Shown one piece after another: positions 410-64,000 of a stretch of 64,000 nucleotides of DNA. The position numbers were made by a program, and so were the translations under genes. The DNA comes from a virus. Lineage: Duplodnaviria > Heunggongvirae > Uroviricota > Caudoviricetes. Under the pieces are notes generated by a model. That model ran no database searches. It was given only the letters and a program-made list of their open reading frames with translations, and was not told where the DNA came from. The stretch covers positions 38,553 through 102,552 of IMG/VR virus record IMGVR_UViG_2778261689_000001, one strand, 5' to 3'. The stretch's first letter is position 1, and each line of letters starts with the position of its first letter.

Positions 410-1773
410 CAATAATCCTCTTGCCAGTCAGCACCAGCATAGTTATCAAACCGTGAGTATTGGCCGTTAAAAGCCAATCTCACCGTGCCAATTGGGCCAT
501 TTCGTTGCTTACCGATAATCACCTCGGCAATGCCCTTCATTTCGCTATCCGGGTGATAAACTTCGTCGCGATACAGAAACATGATCAGGTCTGCGTCCTG
601 CTCAATTGCTCCTGATTCACGTAAATCTGAATTTACCGGTCGTTTGTCCGCACGCTGTTCAAGTGAACGATTAAGTTGTGACAATGCCACCACCGGTACT
701 TGTAATTCCTTCGCCAAAGCCTTCAGTGAGCGAGAAATCTCGGCAATTTCCAGCGTTCGGTTATCTTGCAGCTCGGGGACGCGCATAAGTTGCAGGTAGT
801 CGATCATAATCATGCTCAAACCACCATTTTCTTTATAAACACGACGAGCGCGGGAACGAAGCTCTGTAGGTGTCAGGGCGCTTGAGTCATCAATAAAAAT
901 ATTTTGCTTGTCCAACAGAATCCCCATTGCGCCAGAAACCCGCGCCCAATCCTCGTCGTTAAGTTGCCCTGTTCGAATACGAGTCTGATCAACGCGTGCA
1001 AGAGAAGCCAGTGAGCGCATCATCAGCTGGTGGCTCGGCATCTCAAGGCTAAAAACCAATACGGGCTTATAGTTACGGACTGCGGCATTTTCGACGAGAT
1101 TCATCGCAAACGTGGTCTTCCCCATAGATGGGCGGGCGGCGACAATGATGAGATCGGACGGCTGAAGCCCTGCCGTCTTCTTATTGAGATCGGTAAATCC
1201 CGTATCAAGCCCCGTTACACCATCATGTGGTCGCTGAAACAACTCTTCTATGCGAGATACCGTTGCATCGAGAATGCTGGCGATATCTTTTGGACCACTA
1301 CCGCTCTTTTGTCGTTTTTCAGCTATTTCAAAAACGCGGCGCTCGGCCATATCCAGCAATTCATTGCTGCCCCTGCCATCCTGCGCATATCCAGCTTCGG
1401 CTATTTCATTTGCGACGGAAATCATTTCACGAACGACCGCGCGTTCACGAACGATATCCGCATAAGCACAAATATTTGCCGCGCTGGGCGTGTTCTTTGA
1501 CATCTCCGCAAGGTACGCAAAACCACCGGCGCGTTCTAATTTACCGTTCTGTTCAAGTGCTTCAGCAAGTGTTATCAAATCAATCGGTTTGCCATGACTT
1601 AATAACCTCTCCATCTCACTGAAAATTTCACGATGAGCACTGGTATAAAAATCATCAGCAACTATACGATCTGCAACTTCATCCCAGCGGCAGTTATCAA
1701 GCATTAAGCCACCAAGTACAGCTTGTTCTGCACTAAGGGAATTTGGCATGGATTCAAGAGGGGATGCAGACAT
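409..1773 (-). CDS. ban: DnaB-family replicative helicase (P1 Ban-like)
   Basis: N-terminus AEQAVLGGLMLDNCRWDEVADRIVADDFYT matches the DnaB N-terminal signature; Walker A ARPSMGKTTFA; length about 454 aa; GGAG RBS before the ATG at 1773. Confidence 0.9.
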   Translation of the reverse strand: MSASPLESMPNSLSAEQAVLGGLMLDNCRWDEVADRIVADDFYTSAHREIFSEMERLLSHGKPIDLITLAEALEQNGKLERAGGFAYLAEMSKNTPSAANICAYADIVRERAVVREMISVANEIAEAGYAQDGRGSNELLDMAERRVFEIAEKRQKSGSGPKDIASILDATVSRIEELFQRPHDGVTGLDTGFTDLNKKTAGLQPSDLIIVAARPSMGKTTFAMNLVENAAVRNYKPVLVFSLEMPSHQLMMRSLASLARVDQTRIRTGQLNDEDWARVSGAMGILLDKQNIFIDDSSALTPTELRSRARRVYKENGGLSMIMIDYLQLMRVPELQDNRTLEIAEISRSLKALAKELQVPVVALSQLNRSLEQRADKRPVNSDLRESGAIEQDADLIMFLYRDEVYHPDSEMKGIAEVIIGKQRNGPIGTVRLAFNGQYSRFDNYAGADWQEDY

Positions 1774-2059
1774 TAGCACTCCACCCAGGCGTGCTGAATG
1801 TCAGATATAATCGGCATACTCAAATCACTCCTAACGATATGAGTCATCACCAGAAAATCAGGATTAATGCGCCGGACTCTTCCCGGCTGTCACACCGAAT
1901 CGCCAGGATGGTGAATCCCTTTACCCGAGAAACAACAAACGGTGGCTTGCACATTCCGGCTACCTGGTTCGTTGCCTGAGCTAGGGGCAAGGTTCCCCCC
2001 TTTTAACGTCACCAGACCGCTAACGACGCATGTGCCAGACGCCGTGTTACAACCAAATA

Positions 2060-2135
2060 TGGTGGCCCCTACCGGACTTGAACCGGTGACCGTGCGATTA
2101 TGAGTCGCCAGCTCTAACCACTGAGCTAAAGGGCC
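2060..2135 (-). tRNA. tRNA with CAU anticodon (Met or Ile2/lysidine type), CCA encoded
   Basis: Minus-strand 76-nt cloverleaf: acceptor GGCCCTT/AGGGGCC, D-arm GCTC-AGTGGTTA-GAGC, anticodon loop CTCATAA, T-arm ACCGG-TTCAAGT-CCGGT, ACCA 3' end. One G-A mismatch at the base of the anticodon stem. Confidence 0.8.
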
Positions 2136-2138
2136 GGA

Positions 2139-2246
2139 TTACTGTTTCCTGAGTGCTTCTATGACGCCAGCAATACCGCCTACAACTATGCCAGCAATGA
2201 CAACGAGAACAATTGGATGCTTGTCAGCAAAATCCCAGAAGCCCAT
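2139..2246 (-). CDS. 35-aa hydrophobic peptide (MGFWDFADKHPIVLVVIAGIVVGGIAGVIEALRKQ)
   Basis: Hand-translated; start overlaps the upstream ORF stop (TGATG); single predicted TM helix; below the ORF-track size cut-off. Confidence 0.35.
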   Translation of the reverse strand: MGFWDFADKHPIVLVVIAGIVVGGIAGVIEALRKQ

Positions 2247-2410
2247 CACTGATCCTTAGAAGCTGTTTTTAATATCGGCCATACCAATGTTACAGCTACT
2301 GCCACCAACGCCCCGTCCGATAAAACTGACAGGATTGTGCTGGTGAAATCCACCAGCACGGACAGCAAGAGAAAACCAATGGCGATTGCGATACGTGCCT
2401 TGCTTGCCAT
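2246..2410 (-). CDS. 54-aa small membrane protein (MASKARIAIAIGFLLLSVLVDFTSTILSVLSDGALVAVAVTLVWPILKTASKDQ)
   Basis: Hand-translated; ATG overlaps the stop of the TerB-like gene (TAATG); hydrophobic; translationally coupled three-gene arrangement. Confidence 0.4.
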   Translation of the reverse strand: MASKARIAIAIGFLLLSVLVDFTSTILSVLSDGALVAVAVTLVWPILKTASKDQ

Positions 2411-2844
2411 TACAGATAATCTTCCACACGAAGACCTAAACGACGGCCTACTTCTTCCAGTACTTTGTGTTCTGCTGGCTCGATTTCACCGTCCGCTTCT
2501 GCAATTGTCAGCATGTTAACGAATACTTCTTCCGCTTCTTTTGGATCGTTTTTGATATCTTCAATTTCGCGAAGGATATTCATGCGACCAACACGGAAGC
2601 CAGCTTCCAGTTGCTCGGTAAAGCGGGTAATTGTTGCAGTAATTTCGTTACCAAAATGACTAAGACGCGGATTAGAGCGGACAAGCTGATCAAGTTTCGC
2701 TGTTTCTTCTTTTTCGATTTCACCATCAGCGGCAGACACCAACAAACAGCCACCGATGATGGCCTCCATCAGATCGCGATTCTCAACTTTTTTCAGCTCT
2801 ACTTTTGCAGAAGCGACTTTCTTGCCGAACAATTTACCGAACAT
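2410..2844 (-). CDS. TerB-domain protein (tellurite-resistance TerB family; resembles P1 TciA)
   Basis: 144 aa; paired acidic ADGEIE motifs (VSAADGEIEKEETAKL and IAEADGEIEPAEHKVLEEVGRRLGL) typical of TerB; first gene of a coupled operon ending at the CAU tRNA and ban. Confidence 0.7.
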   Translation of the reverse strand: MFGKLFGKKVASAKVELKKVENRDLMEAIIGGCLLVSAADGEIEKEETAKLDQLVRSNPRLSHFGNEITATITRFTEQLEAGFRVGRMNILREIEDIKNDPKEAEEVFVNMLTIAEADGEIEPAEHKVLEEVGRRLGLRVEDYL

Positions 2845-14285: not shown

Positions 14286-14336
14286 CTCTTCCGAAAAGGG
14301 ATTCACACAAGTGCCTTGTGTTTAAGGAAGAGTAAA

Positions 14337-16043
14337 TTGAGTAACTTACGCGAATACCAGAATCGTATTGCAGATATCGCAAAACGCTCTAAAGCTGTGC
14401 TTGGCTGGGCAAGCACTGCGCAGTTCGGTACTGATAACCAATTCATTAAAGATGATGCCGCGCGTGCCGCATCTATCCTTGAAGCTGCACGTAAAGACCC
14501 GGTTTTTGCGGGTATCTCTGATAATGCCACCGCTCAAATCGCTACAGCGTGGGCAAGTGCACTGGCTGACTACGCCGCAGCACATAAATCTATGCCGCGT
14601 CCGGAAATTCTGGCCTCCTGCCACCAGACGCTGGAAAACTGCCTGATTGAGTCCACCCGCAATAGCATGGATGCCACTAATAAAGCGATGCTGGAATCCG
14701 TCGCAGCAGAGATGATGAGCGTTTCTGACGGTGTTATGCGTCTGCCTTTATTCCTCGCGATGATCCTGCCTGTTCAGTTGGGGGCAGCTACCGCTGATGC
14801 GTGTACCTTCATTCCGGTTACGCGTGACCAGTCCGACATCTATGAAGTCTTTAACGTGGCAGGTTCCTCTTTTGGTTCTTATGCTGCTGGTGATGTTCTG
14901 GACATGCAATCCGTCGGTGTGTACAGCCAGTTACGTCGCCGCTATGTGCTGGTGACAAGCTCCGATGGCACCAGCAAAACCGCAACCTTCAAGATGGAAG
15001 ACTTCGAAGGCCAGAATGTACCAATCCGAAAAGGTCGTACTAACATCTACGTTAACCGTATTAAGTCTGTTGTTGATAACGGTTCCGGCAGCCTACTTCA
15101 CTCGTTTACTAATGCTGCTGGTGAGCAAATCACTGTTACCTGCTCTCTGAACTACAACATTGGTCAGATTGCCCTGTCGTTCTCCAAAGCGCCGGATAAA
15201 GGCACTGAGATCGCAATTGAGACGGAAATCAATATTGAAGCCGCTCCTGAGCTGATCCCGCTGATCAACCACGAAATGAAGAAATACACCCTGTTCCCAA
15301 GCCAGTTCGTTATCGCGGCTGAGCACACGGTACAGGCGGCGTATGAAGCACAGCGTGAATTTGGTCTGGACCTGGGTTCCCTACAGTTCCGCACCCTGAA
15401 AGAATACCTGTCCCATGAACAGGATATGTTGCGTCTCCGCATCATGATCTGGCGTACTCTTGCGACCGACACCTTTGACATCGCTCTGCCGGTTAACCAG
15501 TCCTTTGATGTATGGGCAACCATCATTCGTGGCAAATTCCAGACTGTATATCGCGACATTATTGAGCGCGTTAAATCTTCTGGTGCGATGGGGATGTTTG
15601 CTGGTGCTGATGCAGCATCTTTCTTCAAACAGTTGCCGAAGGATTTCTTCCAGCCAGCCGAAGACTATATCCAGACTCCGTATGTTCACTACATCGGTAC
15701 CCTGTTCGGTAACGTGAAAGTGTACGAAGTACCTGCTGGTATTTGTAAGAACTTAACGACAGAGAACATTCAGTTCAGCTCGATGGATGTGCTGTGCTAC
15801 GTCCGTGATGAAAATCCGGGTAAAGCAGGCTTCGTGACTGGTGATGCTGTCCCGGCCATCCCGTTCCAGCATCCGACCACTCCGGCGCTGGTCAACCGTA
15901 CCACGCTGTGGGGTTCGGCTATCAACGATATGCACCCACGCAACGGCGCTGATTACTTCACTCGTGTAACGCTGACAATGGCCAAAAAAGGCGGGCTTAA
16001 CTTCATTAGCGGCGACACGATTGATGCCGGTGACTCTGAGTAA
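14337..16043 (+). CDS. Virion structural protein, candidate major head protein (position of P1 gene 23 next to parS)
   Basis: Large ORF directly behind the late-promoter motif; AAGGAAG RBS then TTG at 14337 (ORF track begins at 14316). Function assigned by synteny only. Confidence 0.5.
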   Translation: MSNLREYQNRIADIAKRSKAVLGWASTAQFGTDNQFIKDDAARAASILEAARKDPVFAGISDNATAQIATAWASALADYAAAHKSMPRPEILASCHQTLENCLIESTRNSMDATNKAMLESVAAEMMSVSDGVMRLPLFLAMILPVQLGAATADACTFIPVTRDQSDIYEVFNVAGSSFGSYAAGDVLDMQSVGVYSQLRRRYVLVTSSDGTSKTATFKMEDFEGQNVPIRKGRTNIYVNRIKSVVDNGSGSLLHSFTNAAGEQITVTCSLNYNIGQIALSFSKAPDKGTEIAIETEINIEAAPELIPLINHEMKKYTLFPSQFVIAAEHTVQAAYEAQREFGLDLGSLQFRTLKEYLSHEQDMLRLRIMIWRTLATDTFDIALPVNQSFDVWATIIRGKFQTVYRDIIERVKSSGAMGMFAGADAASFFKQLPKDFFQPAEDYIQTPYVHYIGTLFGNVKVYEVPAGICKNLTTENIQFSSMDVLCYVRDENPGKAGFVTGDAVPAIPFQHPTTPALVNRTTLWGSAINDMHPRNGADYFTRVTLTMAKKGGLNFISGDTIDAGDSE

Positions 16044-39906: not shown

Positions 39907-40188
39907 ATGTTTGATTTCACAATAATGCTCCTCTCCATCCTTGGCGGGGTGCATTCGTTTCTGAATGGGGTTCGTGAAAAACGTTACGAAGCGTCATGCA
40001 GGCAATTGATGGCCGAGTGTATTGCTGCCGTACTTGCAGGCTTTATAGGCATGTATTTCGCGGAATATAAGGGTATGGATGAAAGTCTTCAGAATTGCGT
40101 GACTATTATTTGCAGCATCAATAACAGGCTCATTCTTGAAAAGTCACAAAGGATTATCGATTCGTACCTCAATAGAAATGCCTCTTAA
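39907..40188 (+). CDS. Small membrane protein (lysis-cluster, holin/antiholin-like)
   Basis: 93 aa with two hydrophobic helices; first gene after cin. Confidence 0.4.
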   Translation: MFDFTIMLLSILGGVHSFLNGVREKRYEASCRQLMAECIAAVLAGFIGMYFAEYKGMDESLQNCVTIICSINNRLILEKSQRIIDSYLNRNAS

Positions 40189-46897: not shown

Positions 46898-47192
46898 AAT
46901 CGCAGCGCCATTAGGCGGAGATGCCATTATCGAATTTGATGATAATGAAGAAGTTTCCGGGCGTTTAAGCATTATCTCCGGTGACATTACCGAGGACATG
47001 ATCGCTGAAGCCATAGCTGGGGCAAATCCCAATAGCTATATGGGATTCGTTAACACCCTTGATGCTCCCGCAAGTGATGTTCTCCGAACGCTGCATCTTT
47101 ACGCTGGCTGGTTTGTCGATTGGCCAGCAGTAGAGGGTGGCGATGAGGACGACGATGATTTTGGGGATCATGTAGACCAGATCGTATATTAA
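46887..47192 (+). CDS. Small acidic protein (hypothetical), last gene of the Dar operon
   Basis: 101 aa; acidic C-terminus GGDEDDDDFGDH. Confidence 0.45.
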   Translation: MQIKIAAPLGGDAIIEFDDNEEVSGRLSIISGDITEDMIAEAIAGANPNSYMGFVNTLDAPASDVLRTLHLYAGWFVDWPAVEGGDEDDDDFGDHVDQIVY

Positions 47193-47804
47193 CTCCCTGA
47201 TAGTGCACAAATAATCTGTTCTGATATGTTAATTGTGTACTTAAAGTAAACGCGTAGTGGCTTGCTTTAGGTTATGGAAGCAAGCTATTGCCTAATATGT
47301 TAGATCAAAAAATTTTAATTTTTGCGTTTCGCTCACCACATATTGAACACTTTAGCCGATCTTTTAATTCTTCCAGAGTCAATCCTGAAGCTACATATTG
47401 TTTAATATCTCTTCGTCATTGCATATTCAGAGGGTAAAGATATACACATACTAAAATGAATTGGCTTAGCTCGTTATTAATCAGAATTCGATGAGACTAC
47501 TCCATTTTAGGGAATAACATGTATAACTAAAACACATCGTCTTTAACTCTCACAATATAGATTCAGTTTAATACCCAATCGACAGTAATTAATTTGACTC
47601 TACTTTTTAAGTAGATTTCAAATCCACATCCATTAAAACCCTATTAATTAACAGACTATCTATTTTTGCAGTTATTATTTTTGTGCTAATTTAATTGTTT
47701 GTCTTTTGTGCTTATTGTTGATTGTGTTTTGTTCTATTTTGTCAATTTTTATTCTGTGAATTGAGATTTTTCTAATAGTCCATTGGGTTTTCAAGGTTAT
47801 TATT

Positions 47805-47820
47805 TGTGATTTTGATCACA
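47805..47820. promoter_or_regulatory. Perfect CRP-type site tgtga-ttttga-tcaca upstream of the porin gene
   Basis: Exact TGTGA-N6-TCACA palindrome 112 bp upstream of the porin ATG within a very AT-rich 700-bp region. Confidence 0.4.
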
Positions 47821-47931
47821 AAAATACCTTGATTTTTATTTGCAAAACTTGAAACACGAATCCAAAAAAGATAAACATTTGTCCGCAGTGACCTCTTTTC
47901 TACTGAAAAGTTCAATCTAAAGGGCAAAAAA

Positions 47932-49047
47932 ATGAAAAAAATCACAGTGGCACTTTCTGCGGTTGCAGCATCAGTCCTGATGGCAATGTCTGCACAAGCG
48001 GCAGAAATCTATAACAAAGACGGTAACAAACTGGATCTGTACGGCAAAGTTAATGCAGAGCATTACTTCTCTTCTTCAGCTAGTGATGACGGGGATAAAA
48101 CTTATGCTCGTATGGGTTTCAAAGGTGAAACTCAGATTAATGACCAGTTAACCGGTTTTGGTCAGTGGGAGTACGAATTTAAAGGTAACCGTACTGAAAC
48201 TGAAGGTTCTGATAAAGATAAAACTCGTCTTGCGTTTGCAGGGCTTCGCTTTGGCGATTATGGTTCGCTCGACTATGGTCGCAACTACGGTGTAGCGTAT
48301 GATGTTGGCGCTTGGACTGACGTGCTGCCGGAGTTTGGTGGAGATACCTGGACTCAGACTGATGTATTTATGACCCAGCGTGCTACTGGCGTCGCGACCT
48401 ATCGTAACAATGATTTCTTCGGCTTGGTTGATGGTCTGAACTTTGCTTTGCAGTATCAGGGTAAAAATGATAGTGCTGCAAAAGTGAACAACTGGAAAGG
48501 CCGCGACGTAGTTGAATCTAATGGTGATGGCTTCGGTCTGTCAGCTACTTATGATTATGAAGGATTTGGCATTGGCGCAACTTATGCAAAATCTGACCGT
48601 ACTGATGGACAGGTATCCTATGCTAAAGCCCCTCTGAATCTGAATGCCTCTGGTAAAACTGCTGAAGTATGGGCTACGGGCCTGAAATATGATGCAAACA
48701 ACATTTACCTGGCTACAACTTATTCTGAAACTCAGAATATGACAGTCTTCGGTGATGACCATATCGCGAACAAGGCGAAAAACTTTGAAGCCGTTGCTCA
48801 ATACCAGTTTGATTTCGGCCTGCGTCCGTCCATCGCTTACCTACACTCTCGCGGTGAAAATATTGGTGCGTTCGGTAACCAGGATCTGGTTGAATACATC
48901 GACGTGGGCGCGACTTATTACTTTAACAAAAATATGTCCGCTTTCGTTGACTACAAGATCAACCTGATTGATGAAAGTGAATTTACCAAAACATCTGAGG
49001 TTGCAACCGACAACATCGTTGCTGTTGGTATGACCTACCAATTCTAA
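47932..49047 (+). CDS. General porin of the OmpC/OmpF/NmpC(OmpD/Lc) family, with signal peptide
   Basis: 371 aa; signal peptide ending SAQA; [47 protein letters not shown] and C-terminal VGMTYQF match enterobacterial general porins, closest in pattern to the NmpC/Lc group. Confidence 0.9.
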
Positions 49048-50787: not shown

Positions 50788-53518
<2,731 letters not shown>

Positions 53519-53551
53519 TTAATTAGAATAATTCGCATCGTGTTTGAACGG

Positions 53552-53573
53552 AATTTAACACTAGTCACTTGTT
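53552..53573 (-). promoter_or_regulatory. Late-promoter motif on the minus strand driving portal/protease (aacaagtgact-N5-taaatt)
   Basis: Plus strand agtcacttgtt at 53563-53573, inside a 21-bp palindrome ttaacactagtcacttgttaa; 12 bp from the darB ATG on the other strand. Confidence 0.4.
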
Positions 53574-53584
53574 AAGGATTACCA

Positions 53585-56500
53585 ATGAACAAGCTATCTA
53601 TGGGTGTGTTTCGCTGTTCAAGTGTCAGCGAAATATTGAAATACATTAGGGCAATAACATCTCACCGAGCGCCGATTAAATACGGCGTGGAAAAGGTGGA
53701 AGGCAAAAGCTATGACCGACTGCGCCGGGAGGCGAATCAGAAGGCGATAGATTTGCTTAATTCGCTGGTGGACGGCGCGACACTGACAGATGAACAGCGC
53801 CAGATCCTGGCCGGGTACACTGGTGAAGGCGGCATTGGCGGGTCCGTCTCCGAATATTACACACCAAAGCCTATCGCTGAAGGTGTCTGGGAGATCATGA
53901 AGCTCTACGGCGCGGACGTAGGTAACACTCTGGAACCATCGGCGGGAACCGGCGTTTTTAATGAGACAAAACCGGTTGGTACGGTGATGACCGCGACTGA
54001 GATCAGCAGTGTTTCCGGTCGTATAAACCAGTTGTTACACCCGGAAGACAGCGTACAGATTTCCCCGTTCGAACAGCTGGCTATAAACACGCCTAACGAT
54101 TCATTCGACCATGTTGTGGGTAACGTTCCGTTCGGCGGTCGTGATAACACACGCAACATCGATAAGCCTTACGCAGAAGAAACGGACATGGGGTCTTACT
54201 TCATGCTCCGCATGCTGGACAAGATAAAACCTGGCGGATTCATGTGTGTGATTGTGCCGCCGTCCATTGTTTCAGGTTCAAACATGAAACGGTTACGCCT
54301 GCGCCTATCACGGAAAGCTGAATTTCTTGGTGCCCACCGCTTGCCTACCGGTACTTTTGACGCAAACGGGACCAGTACAGTTGTTGATGTGGTGCTGATG
54401 CGCAAACATCCGGCAGAGATGGCTGAGAAAATCCCCCTGGTGGATGAAAGCACTCTCGAATCGGCAAATGTGCTTTGGCCAACGTTTATTTCTGGCAAGT
54501 GGTTTGAAAAGGACGGCCGCCGGTTTGTTCATGGCACCCAGGAAAAGGGCTTCCAGGGGCGTATTGAGGTTCGTGCCGACGGTCAGATTGATAACCAGGC
54601 TCTTAAAGCGAAGCTGATTCATCGTTTCGAAAGCCGTATCGACTGGTCTTTGCTCGATATGGCTGAACCGTCACCGACCGCAGACGTTGTTGGTGAAGGG
54701 GAAATGCGCCTGATTAATGGCGTATGGCAAAAATATGCTGGTGGTCGCTGGATTGAAGCTGATGCAGGGAAGGAACTTAAGATCGATGCTGCCAGTTATG
54801 GCGCGGATAGCTGGGAGGCTCTTCAGCGTAACCTGACTACAACAGAAGGCCGTCTCGGCATGACATTTACCCAGATGGCAAATGTCCGCGATAAGTACAC
54901 CACATCAATCAGCGACGATATGGTGCAGCTGGTGGACTGGATTAACAGCCAGCCTGAAAAATACCGTGAACGCTTGTATCGCGGGGCGATGATTGGCCGG
55001 ATGTTAATTGAATATCAGGACATGAAGGCCGCCGGGCATAGTGCTGAACAAATCGAACAGCAGCGCCTTTCTCTGGTATCCCGTTTGCAGGCAGAGATTG
55101 ACCGTTTTGGTAACCCCGGTCGCGGTCCGATAGCGAAATTATCGGGGAGCGGTGCGCGCGCCTGGTTTGCTTTCCGTGGTGCAATTAAGCTGGATGGCAC
55201 TATTTCTGACGAGCTGACAGGAAAACTGGTTACGCATGATTCCAGCGCCAGTTATGACTCCACCAGCTATCAGGACACCCTGCGTTATCTCTACAGTGAT
55301 CTCACTCGCGATCCAATCCAGCTCGATGATTTCCGCCTTGCGTTTACCGGCGAACTGCCAGCCAGTGATGACGAGTTGCTTAATTTATTGGCCAGCACCC
55401 CTGGCATTGCGGTTTCACCGTATGGCGGGATTGTTCCGTTCGCCCGCGCCACCAGCGGCGACATTAACGAGATAGTGGCTCCAAAACAGGAATTCCTCGC
55501 CACGCTCCCCGACGGTCCAGTAAAGAACAACGTCCTTAATCAGCTGGCAGCGATCGAAGAGAAGCGCATCAAGACGCCAGCAGAGAATATCCGCTTTAAG
55601 CTCAATAGCCGTTGGTTCGACCGTTCCGTCATTCTGGAGTTTTTGCAGGAAAACGGCTATCCGGATCTGCGCTATGTGCAGTCAGTGCAGCTGGAAGGCG
55701 ACGAAATGGTTTCTGACACCTATCACGGTGGTGATGGCCTGTTCGTCGGGCACCGATACGGTGTCGTCCAGCGTAAGGATAAAGAAACAGGCGAGATCCG
55801 CTACGAGTGGGACCGTAAATCAGGTGAAAACGCGACCGGGTTCCCGGCACAGCTGGAAAAGTATCTCAATGGTGCGCGTATCGGTGGCAAAGATAGCGCG
55901 ACGGCGAACGGCTACCGCGAGCAGATGGCACTGCTTGAGGACCAGTTCAATAAGTGGATCAAGACGCACGATCGCTACGATGAGCTGGTTGCTAAATACA
56001 ACGATGTGTTCAATAGCAATATCCCGTATGAACACTCTGGCGATCCGCTTGGGTTGAAGGGATTAAGCGGTAAGCGCCAGCCATTTGATTACCAGAATAG
56101 CGAGGTGCGCCGACTGTCCGAAGATGGGCGCGGCATCCTGGGCTTCGGCACCGGGCTGGGTAAAACCACGACCGCGCTGGCGCTTGAGGCGTTCAACTAT
56201 GAGAACGGTCGCTCCACCCGTACTGCGTATGTAGTGCCTAAATCAGTGCTGGAAAACTGGTATTACGAAGCAAAAGAATTCCTGAGTGAAGAGGCATTCA
56301 GTAACTACCTGTTCGTCGGTCTTGATGTGCTGATGGATGGCGATCAGATTCGCCAGGTGCAGGTGCTCGATGAGAACGGTAAACCTGTTCTTGGTACTGA
56401 TGGCACTCCAGTTATGCGCGATGCTCTTAAGCTGGCAGATGAAGCCACTATCACGGCGCGGATGAACGCGATCCCGCACTCAAATTACCGTGCAGTCGTG

Positions 56501-59500
56501 TTTACCAAAGAACAATACGCCCGCATTCCGCTACGTGATGACACCGTAGATGAGCATGCACAGGATATGCTTTATGACTTCGTTGCCGCCGGACGCGTAG
56601 CCAGCGCAATGGACTCCGACTCCCACCGCAAAGAGGCCGCGCGTCGCCGGGTATTGTCGGAGTATTCAGATACCGGCACCGAAAAAGCAGAGAAGTATCC
56701 GTACTTTGAGGATATGGGCTTCGATAGTGTGATCGCCGACGAAGGCCACAACTACCGCAATAGCTATAAAAATGGTCGCGAAGCGTCACAGCTAGCCTAT
56801 CTGCCCACCAGCGCGGTAGCGCAATCGGCGCGAGATATGGCAATTAAAAACGCGTACCTGATGAAAAAGAATGGTGGGCGCGGGCCGGTTCTCCTGACTG
56901 CAACGCCAGTCGTTAACACCCCGATCGATGCATACAACATGCTTTCTCATGTTCTGCCGAAGGAATACTGGCAGAACATGGGGATCTACGGTCCTGATGA
57001 CTTCGTTAAATTCTTCGGCAAGACCAGGCTGGAAACGGTACAGAAAATTAGCGGTGAAGTTGAAGAAAAAATGGCGCTGGTGGGCTTTGAAAACCTTGAT
57101 GCGCTGCGCGGTATATTCCATCGCTGGGTAACGCTTAAAACGGCGGAAGACGTTAAGGATACCGTGGAGATCCCGGAGCTGGACGAACACCAGCAGGATG
57201 CACCACTTACTGAAGAACAACTGGCGGCGTATGAAGAATTGCGTCAGCAGGCGGAAGCGGCGGCCAAAGCCAACAATGGCGTAACGACCTCGGTCAATGA
57301 AGACGGCGTGATTGAGCACGAGAAAGCCCGTCCGATCTTCTCAATAATCAGGGATATGGACCGCGTATGTACTGACATGGACCTGTACTATCGCCGGATC
57401 ACCTATCGTTTCCTGCCGGAGTACGCCGATGCGGTGCAGCAGCTGGCGGACAGTTTGCCTAAACAAGCCACCAGCGAAGACGACGACAGTGATGATTCAA
57501 TCACGCAGCAATCGCAATACTCCCTGATAGATAAGGGCGAGTTTATTCAGTTGCAGGTTCCGGAAGCGTTCGAGCAGGAAGTGAATAAGCGCCTGGCCAG
57601 GTTTGGCATTGACGAACAGACCGTAACTCACCCCGTTACGCCCAAATACGCGAAGCTGATTGCCACGCTGAAGGAGTTTTTCCCGGAAGGTAAGCAAATC
57701 ATCTTCACCGATGAAAAAACGCAGCACCAGAAGCTCAAGCGCATTATCTGCAATGCTCTTAACCTTGAACCTTCAAAGGTGGGGATACTGAATGCTCAGA
57801 CGGTTGCCGAGGCAGGTAAAACCGGTAAGAAACTGAAAGCGGTTAAACCGCCGAAAGAGTTACCGGATGAACCAACAGATGCACAGATAGCGAAATACAA
57901 CGAGCAAATGGCTCTGTATGACGCCTATATCGCGCAGCAAAATGAAATGTCGTTGGGCGGTCTGGAAAAGATTGCAGCCGACTTCCAGGAGGGCCGGACT
58001 CCGATCATCATCTGCAACAAAAAGGCAGAGGTGGGTATCAACCTGCATCGAGGAACGACTGACATCCATCATCTGACGTTGCCATGGACTCCAGCCAGTA
58101 TTGCGCAACGAAACGGTCGCGGTGCCCGAGTTGGCTCCAACCGTGCAAGCGTTCGCGTTCACTACTACTGCGGCAAGGGGTCTTTCGATGAATACCGACT
58201 GAAGACGCTGAAGCGTAAAGCAGGCTGGATCTCCGATATCCTCCGTTCAGATAAGTCAGAAATGGAGAACGCCGACGCCAACGATATGATCGAAATGCAG
58301 ATGTATACCGCGAAGGATGACGGCGAACGTCTGGCAATGATGCAGGTTCAAATGGATAAGGCGAAAGCTGCGAAACGCGCTCGCCAGAAAGAACAGGCTA
58401 CTATCGACCTTCAGAACTACATCAAGGCGCAGCACGCAGCTGGTGAGGATGTGGAGGTACTTACCGCTGAATTGGAGCGAAGCAAAGCGGAACTTGAAAA
58501 GACCACCGCCGACGTCGCCAAATTCAAACAGGCGGTAATGGCCAAAGCAGCTGATAACGCAGACTGGAAAGCCCGCTGGGGTAGCGTCCATCACACAGAC
58601 CGTATGTTGTTAGCACAGTATCGCGCGTCGTTGAAAAGCGCCATTCAGCGCAAGGCTAATATCTCTCAGGCCATCTCCCGCTATGAGAAATTATTGAACC
58701 GTACTCAGAAGGCCGCGACGGATATCAAACGCCTGCGCCCGCTGGTGGAGGATGCAATAAATAAAGGCATTCTGGATGTTGATCCTGATCTGGTTAACCA
58801 TGCGAATGAGTTCCTTGTTATCGGCGATCGCTCATGGCGTGTAGGCCAATACTATGATTGTGCCGGTGATATCGTTCGCATTAAGTCGCTGGACTTCGAC
58901 AGCCAGCGCGCAGACGTGGAGATCATCTTTACCTTCAAAGGCACCAAATCGGGTAACTGGGATGTGAAGACGCTGGATAAACAGGTTGATGTAACTCCCG
59001 ATGAAGATGCTGTTATGCAGAAAATCAGTGGTGGCGTCTCCATCGCCGGGATTAACGACATCGTTTCCTGTGACGATTTCTACCGTTTCCAGCAGCGCGG
59101 CATGATCAAAATCACTGACTCATACGGCGTTCAGACTACAGAGTCAGGCTATAGCATTGATTTTGTTGGTACCTATACGGACCCACTGAAGCATGCGGTT
59201 TACCCGGATCGCCGTGACGGCGCGCTGAAGTCGTCAATTGCAAAATGGGTGCTTGGTATGATGTCGGAAGGGAATAACCGCCAGATCCGTTCGGCAGAAG
59301 CATTCCTGGTTGAACTGTTTGGCTCCAATTATGGCGATGTAATCGCGTCATACGGAGATACGCTATCCCCTGAAGCACTTCAGGAGAAAATAGCGGATGC
59401 GATCGCCAGAATGCCGGAGAAAACAAGCCAGGGGGCTACTCGTAACGGGGATTCTGAACTTGAAGTCACCAATGCCATTTTCGGTACCAATGAGTTCCGG

Positions 59501-60352
59501 GCGTCAGATTATGAGATCACCACAGCACAGTTTGGCACCATTGGCATTTACAGCAATAAAGCCGAGATCAAGCAGGCAATGGACGCAGCAAGCGCGCGCA
59601 TCGCAGCAGAACGGGAAGCCAATCTGAATCATGCAGTCGCCGCGCTGACTCAATCGTGGGTAACAGCAATCAGGGAGGCCGCCACCACAGGGAAAATCAC
59701 ACCTGCAATAGCGGATGTCGTAAACGACGGCTCTAAATTTATGGATGCCTATCAAATGGATGCGGTGAAGTTGCCATCAGCCTATGGTCAACTCAGCTAT
59801 CGCATGACCTACAACCTGGTATCAATGTTTTCCGACCTTGCCATCCTTGGGCTGGTGGATCTTAACGAGGTTACGCCGGAATTGCTCAGCATGCGCAAGA
59901 ATCATGTGGAGATATTGCAGAGAATTAACACGGTTCTTGCCGGGCGCACCGATGAAGAGAAACAGGCCGACGCTGATCGGATAAACCTGGCCCTTGGCAA
60001 CATCACGGAGGAAGAGATTGCCGCCAGAAACGAGAAACAAGAAGAGTTATCATCAATACAGGGTGATGCCACCAGCATAGCTCAGTCTCTTGGTCTGAAT
60101 TATCGCGTATCCACCGCCGACCTGAAGATGATGTACGCACCAAAATTCGCCGCTGGCGAGGTATTTGGGCTTCAGGAAGCCTCAGGCATGAAAGGCGTTC
60201 TTTTCCGTGCGAAAGACGCAATCAAGGCGAAATTCGGCGCTCGCTGGCTGCCAGCGAAGGCGAAGAACAGCGATTTCCCGGGTAACTGGTGGATTATCGA
60301 GACAAAACACAACGTGGCGGACGTTCTGGCCGTCATCCAACAATACGCATAA
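53585..60352 (+). CDS. darB: Giant antirestriction protein DarB (methyltransferase-like N-terminal domain plus SF2 helicase domain)
   Basis: 2255 aa, as in P1 DarB; MTase-like motifs LEPSAGTGVF and VVGNVPFGG; helicase motifs GFGTGLGKT, VIADEGHNYRN (DEGH) and LLTATPVVNTP. Confidence 0.85.
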   Translation: MNKLSMGVFRCSSVSEILKYIRAITSHRAPIKYGVEKVEGKSYDRLRREANQKAIDLLNSLVDGATLTDEQRQILAGYTGEGGIGGSVSEYYTPKPIAEGVWEIMKLYGADVGNTLEPSAGTGVFNETKPVGTVMTATEISSVSGRINQLLHPEDSVQISPFEQLAINTPNDSFDHVVGNVPFGGRDNTRNIDKPYAEETDMGSYFMLRMLDKIKPGGFMCVIVPPSIVSGSNMKRLRLRLSRKAEFLGAHRLPTGTFDANGTSTVVDVVLMRKHPAEMAEKIPLVDESTLESANVLWPTFISGKWFEKDGRRFVHGTQEKGFQGRIEVRADGQIDNQALKAKLIHRFESRIDWSLLDMAEPSPTADVVGEGEMRLINGVWQKYAGGRWIEADAGKELKIDAASYGADSWEALQRNLTTTEGRLGMTFTQMANVRDKYTTSISDDMVQLVDWINSQPEKYRERLYRGAMIGRMLIEYQDMKAAGHSAEQIEQQRLSLVSRLQAEIDRFGNPGRGPIAKLSGSGARAWFAFRGAIKLDGTISDELTGKLVTHDSSASYDSTSYQDTLRYLYSDLTRDPIQLDDFRLAFTGELPASDDELLNLLASTPGIAVSPYGGIVPFARATSGDINEIVAPKQEFLATLPDGPVKNNVLNQLAAIEEKRIKTPAENIRFKLNSRWFDRSVILEFLQENGYPDLRYVQSVQLEGDEMVSDTYHGGDGLFVGHRYGVVQRKDKETGEIRYEWDRKSGENATGFPAQLEKYLNGARIGGKDSATANGYREQMALLEDQFNKWIKTHDRYDELVAKYNDVFNSNIPYEHSGDPLGLKGLSGKRQPFDYQNSEVRRLSEDGRGILGFGTGLGKTTTALALEAFNYENGRSTRTAYVVPKSVLENWYYEAKEFLSEEAFSNYLFVGLDVLMDGDQIRQVQVLDENGKPVLGTDGTPVMRDALKLADEATITARMNAIPHSNYRAVVFTKEQYARIPLRDDTVDEHAQDMLYDFVAAGRVASAMDSDSHRKEAARRRVLSEYSDTGTEKAEKYPYFEDMGFDSVIADEGHNYRNSYKNGREASQLAYLPTSAVAQSARDMAIKNAYLMKKNGGRGPVLLTATPVVNTPIDAYNMLSHVLPKEYWQNMGIYGPDDFVKFFGKTRLETVQKISGEVEEKMALVGFENLDALRGIFHRWVTLKTAEDVKDTVEIPELDEHQQDAPLTEEQLAAYEELRQQAEAAAKANNGVTTSVNEDGVIEHEKARPIFSIIRDMDRVCTDMDLYYRRITYRFLPEYADAVQQLADSLPKQATSEDDDSDDSITQQSQYSLIDKGEFIQLQVPEAFEQEVNKRLARFGIDEQTVTHPVTPKYAKLIATLKEFFPEGKQIIFTDEKTQHQKLKRIICNALNLEPSKVGILNAQTVAEAGKTGKKLKAVKPPKELPDEPTDAQIAKYNEQMALYDAYIAQQNEMSLGGLEKIAADFQEGRTPIIICNKKAEVGINLHRGTTDIHHLTLPWTPASIAQRNGRGARVGSNRASVRVHYYCGKGSFDEYRLKTLKRKAGWISDILRSDKSEMENADANDMIEMQMYTAKDDGERLAMMQVQMDKAKAAKRARQKEQATIDLQNYIKAQHAAGEDVEVLTAELERSKAELEKTTADVAKFKQAVMAKAADNADWKARWGSVHHTDRMLLAQYRASLKSAIQRKANISQAISRYEKLLNRTQKAATDIKRLRPLVEDAINKGILDVDPDLVNHANEFLVIGDRSWRVGQYYDCAGDIVRIKSLDFDSQRADVEIIFTFKGTKSGNWDVKTLDKQVDVTPDEDAVMQKISGGVSIAGINDIVSCDDFYRFQQRGMIKITDSYGVQTTESGYSIDFVGTYTDPLKHAVYPDRRDGALKSSIAKWVLGMMSEGNNRQIRSAEAFLVELFGSNYGDVIASYGDTLSPEALQEKIADAIARMPEKTSQGATRNGDSELEVTNAIFGTNEFRASDYEITTAQFGTIGIYSNKAEIKQAMDAASARIAAEREANLNHAVAALTQSWVTAIREAATTGKITPAIADVVNDGSKFMDAYQMDAVKLPSAYGQLSYRMTYNLVSMFSDLAILGLVDLNEVTPELLSMRKNHVEILQRINTVLAGRTDEEKQADADRINLALGNITEEEIAARNEKQEELSSIQGDATSIAQSLGLNYRVSTADLKMMYAPKFAAGEVFGLQEASGMKGVLFRAKDAIKAKFGARWLPAKAKNSDFPGNWWIIETKHNVADVLAVIQQYA

Positions 60353-60385
60353 CAGGAGCGCCCGGTTCGCCGGGCGTCGCATAAT

Positions 60386-60826
60386 ATGGCCACACTATCT
60401 GATACAATAAAACCGAATAAAACATATCTTGAGGCGGTACTCCGTACAGCGTTGTTAGGAAAGACAGAAGACGAATACGTTGATTTCTTCCTGTCAGGGC
60501 TACGCGGGCGATTACTGAAAAATCCCCGCCTGTACCGCAGCTATGGTCCATACTGGCCGGAAATTAAAAAATTATTACTGGAGCGCGGTTATGGTAATTT
60601 CGGTCGTCTCGTTGACCGTGACGTTCGCAAAATTTACCGTTATGACCGCCCGGCGCTAACACTCATAGCCGCGACGCTCTACAGCCAGGAGCGTTTTGAT
60701 AATGGTCAGATATACTCAGCCTGGCATTTACTGCCAGTGCCTGAAGAAGTTGACGACCAGGACTATGAGTTTGAGTCTTACGATTTGGAAGTTGAAGCCT
60801 TGGCACAGGCTGGAGAGAAAACTTGA
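60386..60826 (+). CDS. Hypothetical protein downstream of darB (P1 Ulx position)
   Basis: 146-aa ORF. Confidence 0.5.
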   Translation: MATLSDTIKPNKTYLEAVLRTALLGKTEDEYVDFFLSGLRGRLLKNPRLYRSYGPYWPEIKKLLLERGYGNFGRLVDRDVRKIYRYDRPALTLIAATLYSQERFDNGQIYSAWHLLPVPEEVDDQDYEFESYDLEVEALAQAGEKT

Positions 60827-61071
60827 AAAAGCGATACTACACAGTAAAGCATGGGACGCTACGAGCATTACAAGAGTTTGCTGATAAGCATAACGTTGAG
60901 GTGCGCAGGGAAGGGGGAAGTAAAGCTCTGCGCATGTACCGTCCGGACGGGAAATGGCGTACGGTCGTCGATTTCAAAACTAACAGCGTTCCCCAGGGCG
61001 TCCGCGACCGGGCATTCGAAGAATGGGAGCAGATCATCATAGATAACGCATTGCTCCTGAATGCTGATTAA
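60823..61071 (+). CDS. Small protein at the P1 Lxc position (modulator of C1 repression), by size and synteny
   Basis: 82 aa; 4-bp overlap with the preceding gene. Confidence 0.5.
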   Translation: MKKRYYTVKHGTLRALQEFADKHNVEVRREGGSKALRMYRPDGKWRTVVDFKTNSVPQGVRDRAFEEWEQIIIDNALLLNAD

Positions 61072-61079
61072 ATCTTTGG

Positions 61080-61104
61080 CTATGCCTGGCTAAGCCAGGC
61101 ATAG
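61080..61104. terminator. Perfect 11-bp-stem hairpin between convergent lxc-like and toxSAS genes (backbone/cargo boundary)
   Basis: ctatgcctggc-tta-gccaggcatag; T-tracts are weak on both strands, so terminator function is uncertain. Confidence 0.5.
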
Positions 61105-61108
61105 GAAT

Positions 61109-62248
61109 TTACACAGTATCAATGTGTCTGCTAAGGAATCTCCCGAACTGATTTGTTGACCCAAAATAGTTAGGATAAGCCTTTTTAAGAGATTTAATGT
61201 TGTTAGTGGCAAGCAGCACCGCAATTAATACTTCAGGATCCGCATCATCCTTATTAAGTTCCTGGAGGGCTTGTTCCGATTCTTTTTTCCTAAAAGGTTT
61301 CACAGAAACAAGAAACTTTCCAGTATCCTTGCCATTTTTTGTTATGGCGTTTCTCATCCTCACCAAAAAGAATCCATTATGGTTTTTGGGCAGGCTTTTC
61401 TTTAGGTTTGCATCTGATGTCAGCTTCATTGCAAATGTATATGTACTTAATTTTGAGCGAACAGATAAAGCCTCCTCCAATGTTTTAAGCTCTGTTTGAT
61501 AATTTTTGATGGTTTCATCATCAAGAATACAGGCACCTTCATCATGAGCAACTAGGCATCCAGAAAGATAAAAAAATCTTCTCCACTCAGGGTGACCTTC
61601 ATTAGAAGTTTTCAGCTTAATATTTTCAAGTGTATCTATTATCTCCAGACTTGTTGCCCAAGCATGTTGGAGTTCTGTTCTTAGTTGTACTTCGATTTTA
61701 GTTTTACTCCACGGATTGTTACCGTTTTCTTCATCAAAACAACTATATGCAAGGTGAATGCCACTATATCCGCTTGGCTTTGGAGTTAAATAGTCATATT
61801 CCTTTAAGATTTTATGCTTGGAGCGACTTTTAACTAGTCGGTCTTTTAGTTTCTTTAGTTGTTCGATGTTTCTAACTATAGCTCTACATCCGCCAATATC
61901 CTGCATTCTAGTAAGGGCTATTGCATTATTTGTTGCGCCGCCGTCAAGACTTGGACGCTCCAGTTTATCAATTATTGTGCTAAGTCTTTTTAGGCGTCTT
62001 GCAACAATAATCTTATTCTCTTTATCAACTTTTTTTGCAGCCCTATCAAGATGATTTTTCATTAGCATCAATGGATATAAATGAAGCTCGCGGAAATTTT
62101 GAATCATTTTAATTGCTTCTTCTCGCTCTGCGCCCTCACAACCATGTCTAATTTTTCTGGCTGCTTTTTCTATTTGAGATTTCGAATATTTAAGTTCGCA
62201 TTTTTGGCTTTGATATACTTCACTGCCCATTACTAACATCCAGTTCAA
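61109..62248 (-). CDS. Fused toxSAS-type RelA/SpoT-homologue nucleotidyltransferase with a C-terminal regulatory extension (CapRel-like single-gene toxin-antitoxin defence candidate)
   Basis: 379 aa; ordered RSH synthetase motifs RLKRLSTIIDK, DIGGCRAIV, GYSGIHLAY, EVQLRTELQHAWA in the N-terminal about 270 aa; about 100-aa K/N-rich C-terminal domain; AT-rich; occupies the site where P1 carries res-mod. Confidence 0.8.
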   Translation of the reverse strand: MNWMLVMGSEVYQSQKCELKYSKSQIEKAARKIRHGCEGAEREEAIKMIQNFRELHLYPLMLMKNHLDRAAKKVDKENKIIVARRLKRLSTIIDKLERPSLDGGATNNAIALTRMQDIGGCRAIVRNIEQLKKLKDRLVKSRSKHKILKEYDYLTPKPSGYSGIHLAYSCFDEENGNNPWSKTKIEVQLRTELQHAWATSLEIIDTLENIKLKTSNEGHPEWRRFFYLSGCLVAHDEGACILDDETIKNYQTELKTLEEALSVRSKLSTYTFAMKLTSDANLKKSLPKNHNGFFLVRMRNAITKNGKDTGKFLVSVKPFRKKESEQALQELNKDDADPEVLIAVLLATNNIKSLKKAYPNYFGSTNQFGRFLSRHIDTV

Positions 62249-62342
62249 ATGATTAATGTGTTGTTACATATAATAACAAATCAAGCTAGAAATCAATGGG
62301 TATGAAAATGAAACATACCCATAATGTTACCTAACGTAACTA

Positions 62343-62984
62343 TTATAAATAGTTCTGTTTACCTGTTAATTCTCCTTGCGGCACTTGTTTTTGCGTTAGT
62401 GTTTGAGTTCCGCGAATTATGTTAATCAGGGGACTTAGTAATGATGGTTCCTGATGGGCCTCAACTTCTCCAGCCATTGCCCTGATGTAGTCGGCGCTGG
62501 CAACGTTGTTGTATTCCGTCGCAAAGCAACATAGTAACGTCAGAACATGTTCTGTCGTTATTTCGCTCCAGTTGATGTTGAAAAATTCATCGCCTTTTTT
62601 ATCGTGTTCGGAATCGAAGATGCTTTGGTGAAGGATGTATTTGCCGGATTCCTTGCGCGGTAACTTGATCGCTTTCTGGCGTTCCAATTCCTTGTAAATC
62701 TGCATTGCTTCAATCAGTACCGGTCTGCCGTTCATGAAGGGATCACGCAACCTTACACGCTGGCCAACTCGACCGGTAATAAAGCTGTTTTCCTCTTCCA
62801 CCAGCACGATAAAACCCTTTTCCTCTTTTTCTCGCAATTCGCGCAGCAGCTGGAGTTCCATATCGCGGCGGCGTTCAGGGTAGCTGGTCCGCTCAGCCAT
62901 TATCAGCTCATTGTTGATCCATGCAGCAGTCATTGACGCCGGTTTGCCGACGCTCATTGAAACAACGCATATTTTCTTATCCAT
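62343..62984 (-). CDS. Hypothetical protein (213 aa) between the toxSAS gene and the ref-like gene
   Basis: ATG at 62984 (MDKKICVV); no recognisable motif; a weak late-promoter motif lies upstream; hairpin atgggtatg...catacccat downstream (62291-62317). Confidence 0.5.
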   Translation of the reverse strand: MDKKICVVSMSVGKPASMTAAWINNELIMAERTSYPERRRDMELQLLRELREKEEKGFIVLVEEENSFITGRVGQRVRLRDPFMNGRPVLIEAMQIYKELERQKAIKLPRKESGKYILHQSIFDSEHDKKGDEFFNINWSEITTEHVLTLLCCFATEYNNVASADYIRAMAGEVEAHQEPSLLSPLINIIRGTQTLTQKQVPQGELTGKQNYL

Positions 62985-63113
62985 AGCGCCCCTACAAAAA
63001 AGAAAAGCCACCAGCGGCGGCTTAGCAATACAACTGAAGGTAGCGCCCGGTACTCAGACTGTGCCGTCCATGGAATATTTGAAAAGGGATCCATCCGTAC
63101 CGGGCGTGTGATG

Positions 63114-63135
63114 ATTCTGACTCAAGTCACTTGTC
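63114..63135 (-). promoter_or_regulatory. Weak late-promoter motif on the minus strand (gacaagtgact-N5-cagaat) upstream of the 213-aa gene
   Basis: Plus strand agtcacttgtc at 63125-63135; the minus-10 is a poor match. Confidence 0.3.
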
Positions 63136-63165
63136 AGTTGTCAATCATTTAAGATTAAAAATAAT

Positions 63166-63182
63166 ATATTTATTAGTGCATG
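63166..63182. promoter_or_regulatory. Degenerate C1-operator-like site (13 of 17) overlapping the ref-like stop codon
   Basis: atatttattagtgcatg has the atttattag core conserved. Confidence 0.35.
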
Positions 63183-63607
63183 ATGTTTGCCATTTCATAG
63201 GCGTCAGCCAGCAACTCCATCTCTGACTTGTTCAACAAGGTGAATTCTTTCTTGCCTCCTACCACGCCATCTGCATGAACAGGGACCAGCCAAGGGTATT
63301 TTTCTCTTACTTCAGCCGGTGCTGCATGCTGGTGGTGCCATCTGCAAAGGGGCAATTGCTTTTTGTGACAACCCGGCGCGGTACGACCGGAGATATGGTG
63401 CAGAGACACCTCTTCAGATATTACTCCATGCATGTAGCAGGCAATGCAGGGGAGAGTGCCAAGAGCATTGGCGATGGTCCGTTCCTCCGCCGTCGGTGTT
63501 CGCCCCTTCAAGCCACGAGATTTTATTTTTACCGCACTTTTCCGCGTTTTGCTGGCTGGTGGGCGCTCTTTCTGTTTAGCGATACGGCGGTCGATAGAAT
63601 CCCGCAT
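63173..63607 (-). CDS. ref: HNH-type endonuclease (P1 Ref-like recombination enhancement function)
   Basis: 144-aa ORF; basic N-terminal region; Cys/His cluster LPCIACYMHG...LHHISGRTAPGCHKK...CRWHHQH typical of an HNH zinc finger. Confidence 0.6.
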   Translation of the reverse strand: MRDSIDRRIAKQKERPPASKTRKSAVKIKSRGLKGRTPTAEERTIANALGTLPCIACYMHGVISEEVSLHHISGRTAPGCHKKQLPLCRWHHQHAAPAEVREKYPWLVPVHADGVVGGKKEFTLLNKSEMELLADAYEMANIMH

Positions 63608-64000
63608 TTTCTGATAGGGGTCAGTTTGGATATCGAAAATTATTGTACGTTAAGCTCATTTTTTATCATTTCTGGTTTTTTTGGAAACGTAATATTCTGG
63701 ATGTTAAGACGGTCATGCGGGGACATTGAACACAGATAATCATGTCCAGGTACGAACGTCCCATATAGAGTGTGAGCATTGATCGTGCTGTATTTTCGTT
63801 TATAGTAGATAGATTCTGTATCATACAGAGCACGTGGTCAGCACTAAAGTACATTACGCTGACTTATTCTGTTCACTGAGGGCTGAGTACCTGCTTTCAA
63901 GGATTTATCTGCTGAATCATGCGGGTAATGACTCCAACTTATTGATAGTGTTTTATGTTCAGATAATGCCCGATGACTTTGTCATGCAGCTCCACCGATT

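Follow-up and report, generated by a model that had tools for sequence, protein, structure and literature searches.

The closest described system is CapRelSJ46, a fused toxic small alarmone synthetase (toxSAS) and antitoxin characterised by Zhang et al. (Nature 2022, PMC9712102; Nature 2024, PMC11578894). The N-terminal region is toxic, an effect that the C-terminal fragment rescues in trans, and the full-length gene under its native promoter gave E. coli MG1655 Y155-dependent protection against several phages (PMC9712102). The major capsid protein of phage SECphi27, Gp57, is necessary and sufficient for activation and binds the C-terminal pseudo-zinc-finger domain (pseudo-ZFD) at 1:1 and ~350 nM; direct binding of the trigger, without proteolysis, yields an active enzyme that pyrophosphorylates tRNA and thereby blocks translation (PMC9712102). 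The crystal structure represents the open state, and the closed state, with the YXXY motif between R79 and R116, is an AlphaFold prediction (PMC9712102). A second and unrelated trigger, the 66-aa protein Gp54 of Bas11, contacts an overlapping surface that includes helix alpha9 (PMC11578894). No bacterial immunity protein before CapRelSJ46 had been shown to be activated by a viral capsid protein binding to it directly, and it later became the first for which sensing of two unrelated phage proteins was demonstrated.

Related systems are known from several hosts. CapRelEbc (Enterobacter chengduensis) and CapRelKp (Klebsiella pneumoniae) are fused toxSAS–antitoxin defence proteins of the same subfamily (PMC9712102), although, compared by description, their C-terminal sensors and phage ranges differ from those of CapRelSJ46. 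CapRelEbc, which responds to Gp0.4 in combination with FtsZ, gives protection against T7 (PMC13423816, abstract). PhRel/ATphRel of mycobacteriophage Phrann and the unfused CapRel/ATcapRel pairs are likewise prophage-borne and exclude other phages but, again compared by description, consist of two separate genes, in contrast to the one fused polypeptide of CapRelSJ46.

Identity and domain architecture of the capRel product

In the ORF listing of the window (the whole 64,000-nt stretch analysed here), a minus-strand frame at 61109–62248 encodes 379 aa from a TTG codon. The original prediction read this frame as a fused, CapRel-type, phage-borne abortive-infection toxSAS of 379 aa. The ORF exists at these positions, but the biological length is 373 aa: the most probable start codon is the ATG at 62230 rather than the TTG at 62248, which adds just six codons to the mechanical ORF, because a 1122-nt CDS is annotated in SJ46 (NC_031129) and in RefSeq plasmids and the 373-aa protein is the one that was crystallised. 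Antisense ORFs within capRel (e.g. 61197–61499, 100 aa) were taken as fortuitous frames on the AT-rich opposite strand.

A search of PDB chain sequences returned 7ZTB chain A as identical to ORF residues 7–379 at 373 of 373 positions (E=1.6e-250), and 9ERV (372 residues) also matched the capRel product at 100%. Both PMC11578894 and a 2026 preprint cite the former as the crystal structure of CapRelSJ46; the latter is named once in the text of PMC11578894, the paper reporting the complex of CapRelSJ46 with Gp54(Bas11). Identity extends to the DNA, with 100% agreement between window positions 60300–63200 and Salmonella phage SJ46 (KU760857, NC_031129), so that the gene, both intergenic regions, ulx, lxc and mat are the same in the two, as is the upstream fragment published as the native promoter. 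The protein further matches the PADLOC candidate single-gene family PDC-S33 (E=5.1e-87, profile positions 4–342 of 349). The original prediction had mentioned a CapRel homologue in a P1-like Salmonella phage and left open whether the present gene was that allele or had diverged from it; the two alleles are the same, and the 373/373 identity to the crystallised protein rules out a diverged form. The match to the crystallised chain leaves no divergence from CapRelSJ46, the C-terminal sensor domain included. Judged by sequence, the gene is therefore capRelSJ46, encoding a single-protein, anti-phage toxin–antitoxin module, one already characterised and not new. We found no evidence that contradicts this explanation and saw no sequence difference from the published protein.

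Pfam assigns the N-terminal half to the RelA/SpoT homologue (RSH) synthetases, with RelA_SpoT (PF04607) matching aa 85–199 of the 379-aa ORF at E=3.1e-13 and 50.4 bits, above the gathering score of 27. All four synthetase motifs named from the raw sequence are present and lie in the canonical order: R-x-K..S..K as RLKRLSTIIDK at aa 85, D-x-x-G-x-R as DIGGCRAIV at aa 117, the G-Y-x-S-x-H G-loop as GYSGIHLAY at aa 160 and E-x-Q-x-R-T as EVQLRTELQHAWA at aa 186, corresponding to aa 79, 111, 154 and 180 in the published 373-aa numbering, to which the named residues below refer. The profile match thus bears out the RSH fold expected of this half.

The shared RelA_SpoT domain would also be expected of an ordinary small alarmone synthetase of the RelP/RelQ type, producing (p)ppGpp for phage or host and serving neither as toxin nor in defence. 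Weak matches to RelP/RelQ structures (2BE3, E=1.8e-7; also 6EWZ and 5DEC) point the same way, as do the labels ‘GTP pyrophosphokinase’ and ‘(p)ppGpp synthetase’ that public records give to the gene. However, the likeness to housekeeping enzymes is distant and limited to aa 65–200, and the published biochemistry already refutes this reading, in that the identical protein pyrophosphorylates tRNA, is toxic through its N-terminal part alone and confers Y155-dependent defence (PMC9712102). We consequently give an ordinary synthetase practically no credence and retain the identification as CapRelSJ46. As to activity, the original prediction had allowed for either tRNA pyrophosphorylation or (pp)pApp synthesis; the former holds for the identical protein, and the latter is not reported for CapRelSJ46 (PMC9712102).

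The C-terminal antitoxin and sensor region has the architecture of a fused CapRel. It includes anchor helix alpha9 (aa 270–279), carries the YXXY motif (Y352 and Y355) in its C-terminal helix and contains no zinc-binding cysteines, there being no Cys after residue 234, so that the pseudo-ZFD is cysteine-less; the fold of this domain was assigned from the crystal structure of the identical sequence. A separate antitoxin gene is absent. Every residue singled out in PMC9712102 and PMC11578894, where the functional roles of the catalytic, anchor, sensor, interface and YXXY residues are described, is retained: the ATP-coordinating R79 and R116 and the G-loop Y155, the anchor-helix residues L270, N275, L276 and K278, the sensor residues L280, L307, R314 and K316, and the interface residues A77, V338, L339 and A341. 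The C-terminal extension had been described as rich in lysine and asparagine, and residues 273–373 (101 aa) do contain 12.9% K and 9.9% N; the N-terminal part is likewise K-rich (10.7%).

Borders, promoter region and carrier of the cassette

The gene order around capRel is darB–ulx–lxc on one side and mat–ref on the other, with capRel co-oriented with mat and convergent on lxc (Table 1). In a blastn comparison with reference P1 (NC_005856), window positions 53000–61072 correspond to P1 17821–9749 at 98.3% identity and positions 62343–63616 to P1 3468–2194 at 94.1%. Homology stops at 61072 (P1 9749), one base beyond the lxc stop codon, and restarts at 62343 (P1 3468), where the stop codon of mat has its final base. 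The intervening segment, which takes the place of 6280 bp in P1 (3469–9748), has the features of a P1-like accessory cassette, with conserved backbone on either side and homology breaking at its borders.

Table 1. Features of the capRel region and of its surroundings, with positions in the window
Feature	Position	Strand	Description
Porin gene	47932–49047	+	OmpC-type, 371 aa
darB	53585–60352	+	Single 2255-aa ORF
ulx	60386–60826	+	
lxc	60823–61071	+	
capRel cassette	61073–62342		AT-rich, 1270 bp, GC 0.366; lies in the lxc–mat slot between the breaks in P1 homology
lxc-side hairpin	61080–61104		Perfect 11-bp hairpin between the convergent stops of lxc (61071) and capRel (61109); assessed by folding energy and shuffles
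capRelSJ46 CDS	61109–62230	-	Start codon ATG at 62230, then 373 codons in all before the stop (61109–61111); ORF residues 7–379 equal 7ZTB chain A
C-terminal antitoxin/sensor region	61112–61414	-	About aa 273–373; anchor helix alpha9, pseudo-ZFD and C-terminal helix with YXXY
N-terminal toxin region	61415–62230	-	About aa 1–272 (boundary approximate); toxSYNTH pyrophosphokinase fold, PF04607 over aa 79–193 (373-aa numbering)
Upstream region	62231–62342	-	112 nt from mat stop to capRel ATG; equals the published native-promoter fragment
mat-side hairpin	62291–62317		9-bp stem within the upstream region
Sigma-70-like site	62369–62342	-	TTAACA-16-TATAAT, 11 of 12 consensus matches
mat	62343–63011	-	Extent given as ORF; P1 backbone
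ref	from 63173	-	Truncated

From mat to lxc, reference P1 carries res and then mod, the latter containing IS5. The placement proposed from the sequence, at the site where P1 has its res-mod system, proved exact to the base, falling between the lxc and mat stop codons. The EcoPI type III restriction-modification system encoded by res and mod occupies the identical slot and also serves a prophage in defence; it differs from capRel in its unrelated proteins and mechanism, in its size (6.3 kb in reference P1, including IS5) and in its orientation, being transcribed opposite to mat, whereas capRel runs in the same direction as mat. Base composition sets the cassette apart as well, its GC content of 36.6% being lower than that of the window (48.1%) and of darB (52.2%), in line with the description of the gene as AT-rich. 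The gaps between capRel and the stop codons of lxc and mat measure 37 and 112 nt, respectively, and both neighbours are conserved P1 backbone; there is therefore no room for a separate antitoxin gene, and none had been seen in the initial reading.

The same reading had reported strong hairpins bracketing the gene, and both are real. The lxc-side hairpin has a folding energy of -20.2 kcal/mol (z -4.5) on one strand and of -19.5 kcal/mol (z -4.3) on the other, and none of 200 shuffles was as stable. It probably acts as a bidirectional terminator, albeit one without a clear T-run, and belongs to the cassette rather than to the P1 backbone, given that P1 homology stops at 61072. The mat-side hairpin lies within an enclosing fold of z=-3.7.

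The upstream region can be compared directly with the construct used in the published work. In gBlock TZ-1 (PMC9712102 supplement), the native part begins TAGTTACGTTAGG, which corresponds to window position 62342 read downward, and this 112-nt fragment gave native expression on a pBR322 backbone that the authors term promoter-less (PMC9712102). The sigma-70-like site listed in Table 1 faces capRel and extends over the final codons of mat and its stop. We rejected it as the required capRel promoter, since TZ-1 keeps only the last base of its -10 hexamer; because TZ-1, starting at 62342, sufficed for native expression, the site is dispensable, although it might boost capRel transcription in the native context. 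A working capRel promoter should accordingly lie within 62231–62342, where a consensus scan found no sigma-70 site with 16–18 nt spacing. Read-through from the vector is a possible source of the TZ-1 expression. By eye, a candidate promoter, TTGATT-15 nt-TATTAT, was seen in the 112-nt fragment.

The carrier is closely related to SJ46 but is not SJ46 itself, an identification that we rejected because the carrier has an intact darB and lacks the Tn1721 that SJ46 carries beyond 63213. Between 54300 and 63213 the two are 99.2% identical; past that point SJ46 has Tn1721, whereas the window continues into ref up to 63616. In SJ46, darB is annotated as two CDS (L001 1–6053), in contrast to the single intact ORF of the window, which reflects either a real disruption or a sequencing error in SJ46. 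The best matches to the window are P1-like plasmids of E. coli such as pUTAK-11-1 (99.4% over 23.6 kb); with the 24 kb of window positions 40000–64000 as query, about 350 records reached a coverage of 80% or more. On these comparisons, the carrier is best described as a P1-like phage-plasmid related to SJ46, with intact darB and truncated ref. The cassette itself occurs at an identity of at least 99.9% in 14 of 5426 complete E. coli genomes, plasmid-borne every time, and is found too in P1-like plasmids of Klebsiella and Salmonella.

Two further observations concern the carrier. Homology of ref (63173–63616) to P1 and to P1-like plasmids stops at 63616 (P1 2194), with approximately the first 39 codons lost; positions 63617–64000 are DNA that adjoins IS1 in IncF/IncX1 plasmids, with more than 5000 matching plasmid records, and IS1 terminal sequence begins at about 63925. 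The DNA from 63617 onward has the look of an insertion bounded by IS1 and may be a resistance region, whose continuation falls past the end of the window. Elsewhere, a full-length OmpC-type porin gene (Pfam Porin_1, E=3e-148) lies between a ddrB-like gene and ssb, preceded by a very AT-rich upstream region of 740 bp (47190–47931); related plasmids have it annotated as ‘porin OmpC’. The receptor display or permeability of the host could be altered by such a prophage-encoded porin.

Occupants of the lxc–mat slot in P1-like elements

The slot has variable contents among P1-like elements: EcoPI res-mod in P1, the present capRel allele in SJ46 and in the window, a second capRel allele in pEC974-2, an AraC and EAL gene pair in vB_EcoM-Ro157c2YLVW and no cassette in RCS47. 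In the available portion of a 2025 preprint (10.1101/2025.09.12.675607), the main defence systems of P1-like phage-plasmids are given as CapRel, type III restriction-modification, dGTPase and PrrC, and a slot-level mapping was not found in that portion. The lxc-side hairpin differs among the window, RCS47 and pEC974-2, the three non-P1 slots that were read for it.

The second allele (WP_071447930.1, pEC974-2, NZ_CP021842; L004 4472–5599, minus strand) has the same slot, orientation and fused architecture, encodes 375 aa, matches PDC-S33 at E=8.5e-86 and is also present in similar E. coli plasmids. It keeps the catalytic motifs and YXXY of CapRelSJ46, with 74% identity overall, 77% in the toxin region and 53–61% in the pseudo-ZFD. 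This divergence of the pseudo-ZFD fits the published account of the sensor domain as the least conserved part of CapRel (PMC9712102). A further homologue, in vB_EcoM-673R5 (L005 2835–3934, minus strand), is annotated as two adjacent CDS, and tblastn recovered it in two pieces covering 96% of the query at 71% identity; this copy is apparently frameshifted, as a pseudogene or through a sequencing or assembly error. Separately, pEC974-2 has a DUF4145 protein gene inserted between mat and ref (L004 6499–7248, minus strand), which suggests a second variable slot one gene on.

In vB_EcoM-Ro157c2YLVW (L007), the slot holds two divergent genes. One, at 1011–1733 (minus strand), encodes an AraC-family HTH protein (PF12833, E=2e-13); the product of the other, at 1986–2585 (plus strand), has 199 aa and an EAL domain (PF00563, E=7e-13). 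Neither has a convincing PADLOC match, and the pair may represent a c-di-GMP-related host-modulating cassette. A broader proposal is that lxc–mat constitutes a slot dedicated to the exchange of cassettes and bordered exactly by the two stop codons, that uncharacterised occupants such as the AraC and EAL pair represent novel modules acting against phages or modulating the host, and that a systematic search of the slot could bring out more of them; we offer this tentatively and consider it, as a whole, somewhat unlikely.

The empty slot of RCS47 (L006 972–1012), 39 bp with a GC-rich hairpin only, bears on the role of capRel in the carrier. P1 carries addiction systems. The presence of a toxin–antitoxin system on a low-copy plasmid prophage, taken together with this precedent, could suggest that capRel is mainly a plasmid-addiction module that stabilises the P1-like prophage by post-segregational killing, with defence as a side effect. 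Since RCS47 has nothing in the slot, the P1-like backbone needs no cassette there and is independent of it. Moreover, toxin and antitoxin form one polypeptide, so that differential decay of an unstable antitoxin is unavailable in its usual form, and trigger binding activates CapRelSJ46 directly, with no proteolysis (PMC9712102). A primary role in addiction is, in our assessment, very improbable, and we regard defence by CapRelSJ46, borne on a 1.27-kb accessory cassette of a P1-like phage-plasmid, as nearly certain both in identity and in mechanism.

Proposed action in the lysogen and significance

The original prediction of C-terminal auto-inhibition relieved by capsid binding agrees with the published findings on a protein of identical sequence (PMC9712102). 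At rest, the pseudo-ZFD would fold onto toxSYNTH, and YXXY would block the ATP site between R79 and R116. During infection, a newly made phage protein would bind the C-terminal domain and keep the enzyme open; known triggers are the SECphi27 major capsid protein, with its counterparts in related phages, and Bas11 Gp54. Once open, the enzyme would move pyrophosphate from ATP onto the tRNA 3' CCA end, halting translation and aborting the infection, so that the lysogen population, and hence the resident phage-plasmid, would be protected. The published tests used E. coli MG1655 that carried the gene on pBR322 or integrated in the chromosome, and not a P1-like lysogen; the word ‘lysogen’ is absent from the 2022 paper (PMC9712102). 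We infer that the native P1-like lysogen likewise expresses capRel and is protected by it.

Activation by the resident phage itself was considered by searching for relatives of the known capsid trigger. The gene for SECphi27 Gp57 was located in the unannotated record LT961732 (L010 27099–28070) and encodes 323 aa, with L114 and I115 present and a match to the PHROG major head protein family. No Gp57-like sequence was found in the 64-kb window, which holds part of the genome (best tblastn E=1.1), and this search operated at the level of sequence, whereas trigger recognition is structural. The result argues weakly against self-activation by the resident phage. In the window, the ORF at 14316–16043 is a tentative candidate, by position, for the P1-type major head protein gene; PHROGs lists it without a known function.

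Another exact copy of CapRelSJ46 on a P1-like phage-plasmid brings no new biology, although its recovery indicates that a reading of raw sequence alone can recognise a CapRel system. The additions to the known system are modest and consist of base-exact borders, alternative contents of the slot and a native fragment that excludes the strongest predicted promoter. With them, the native setting of CapRelSJ46 is documented as a 1270-bp cassette that lies between the lxc and mat stop codons, in exchange for the EcoPI restriction system.
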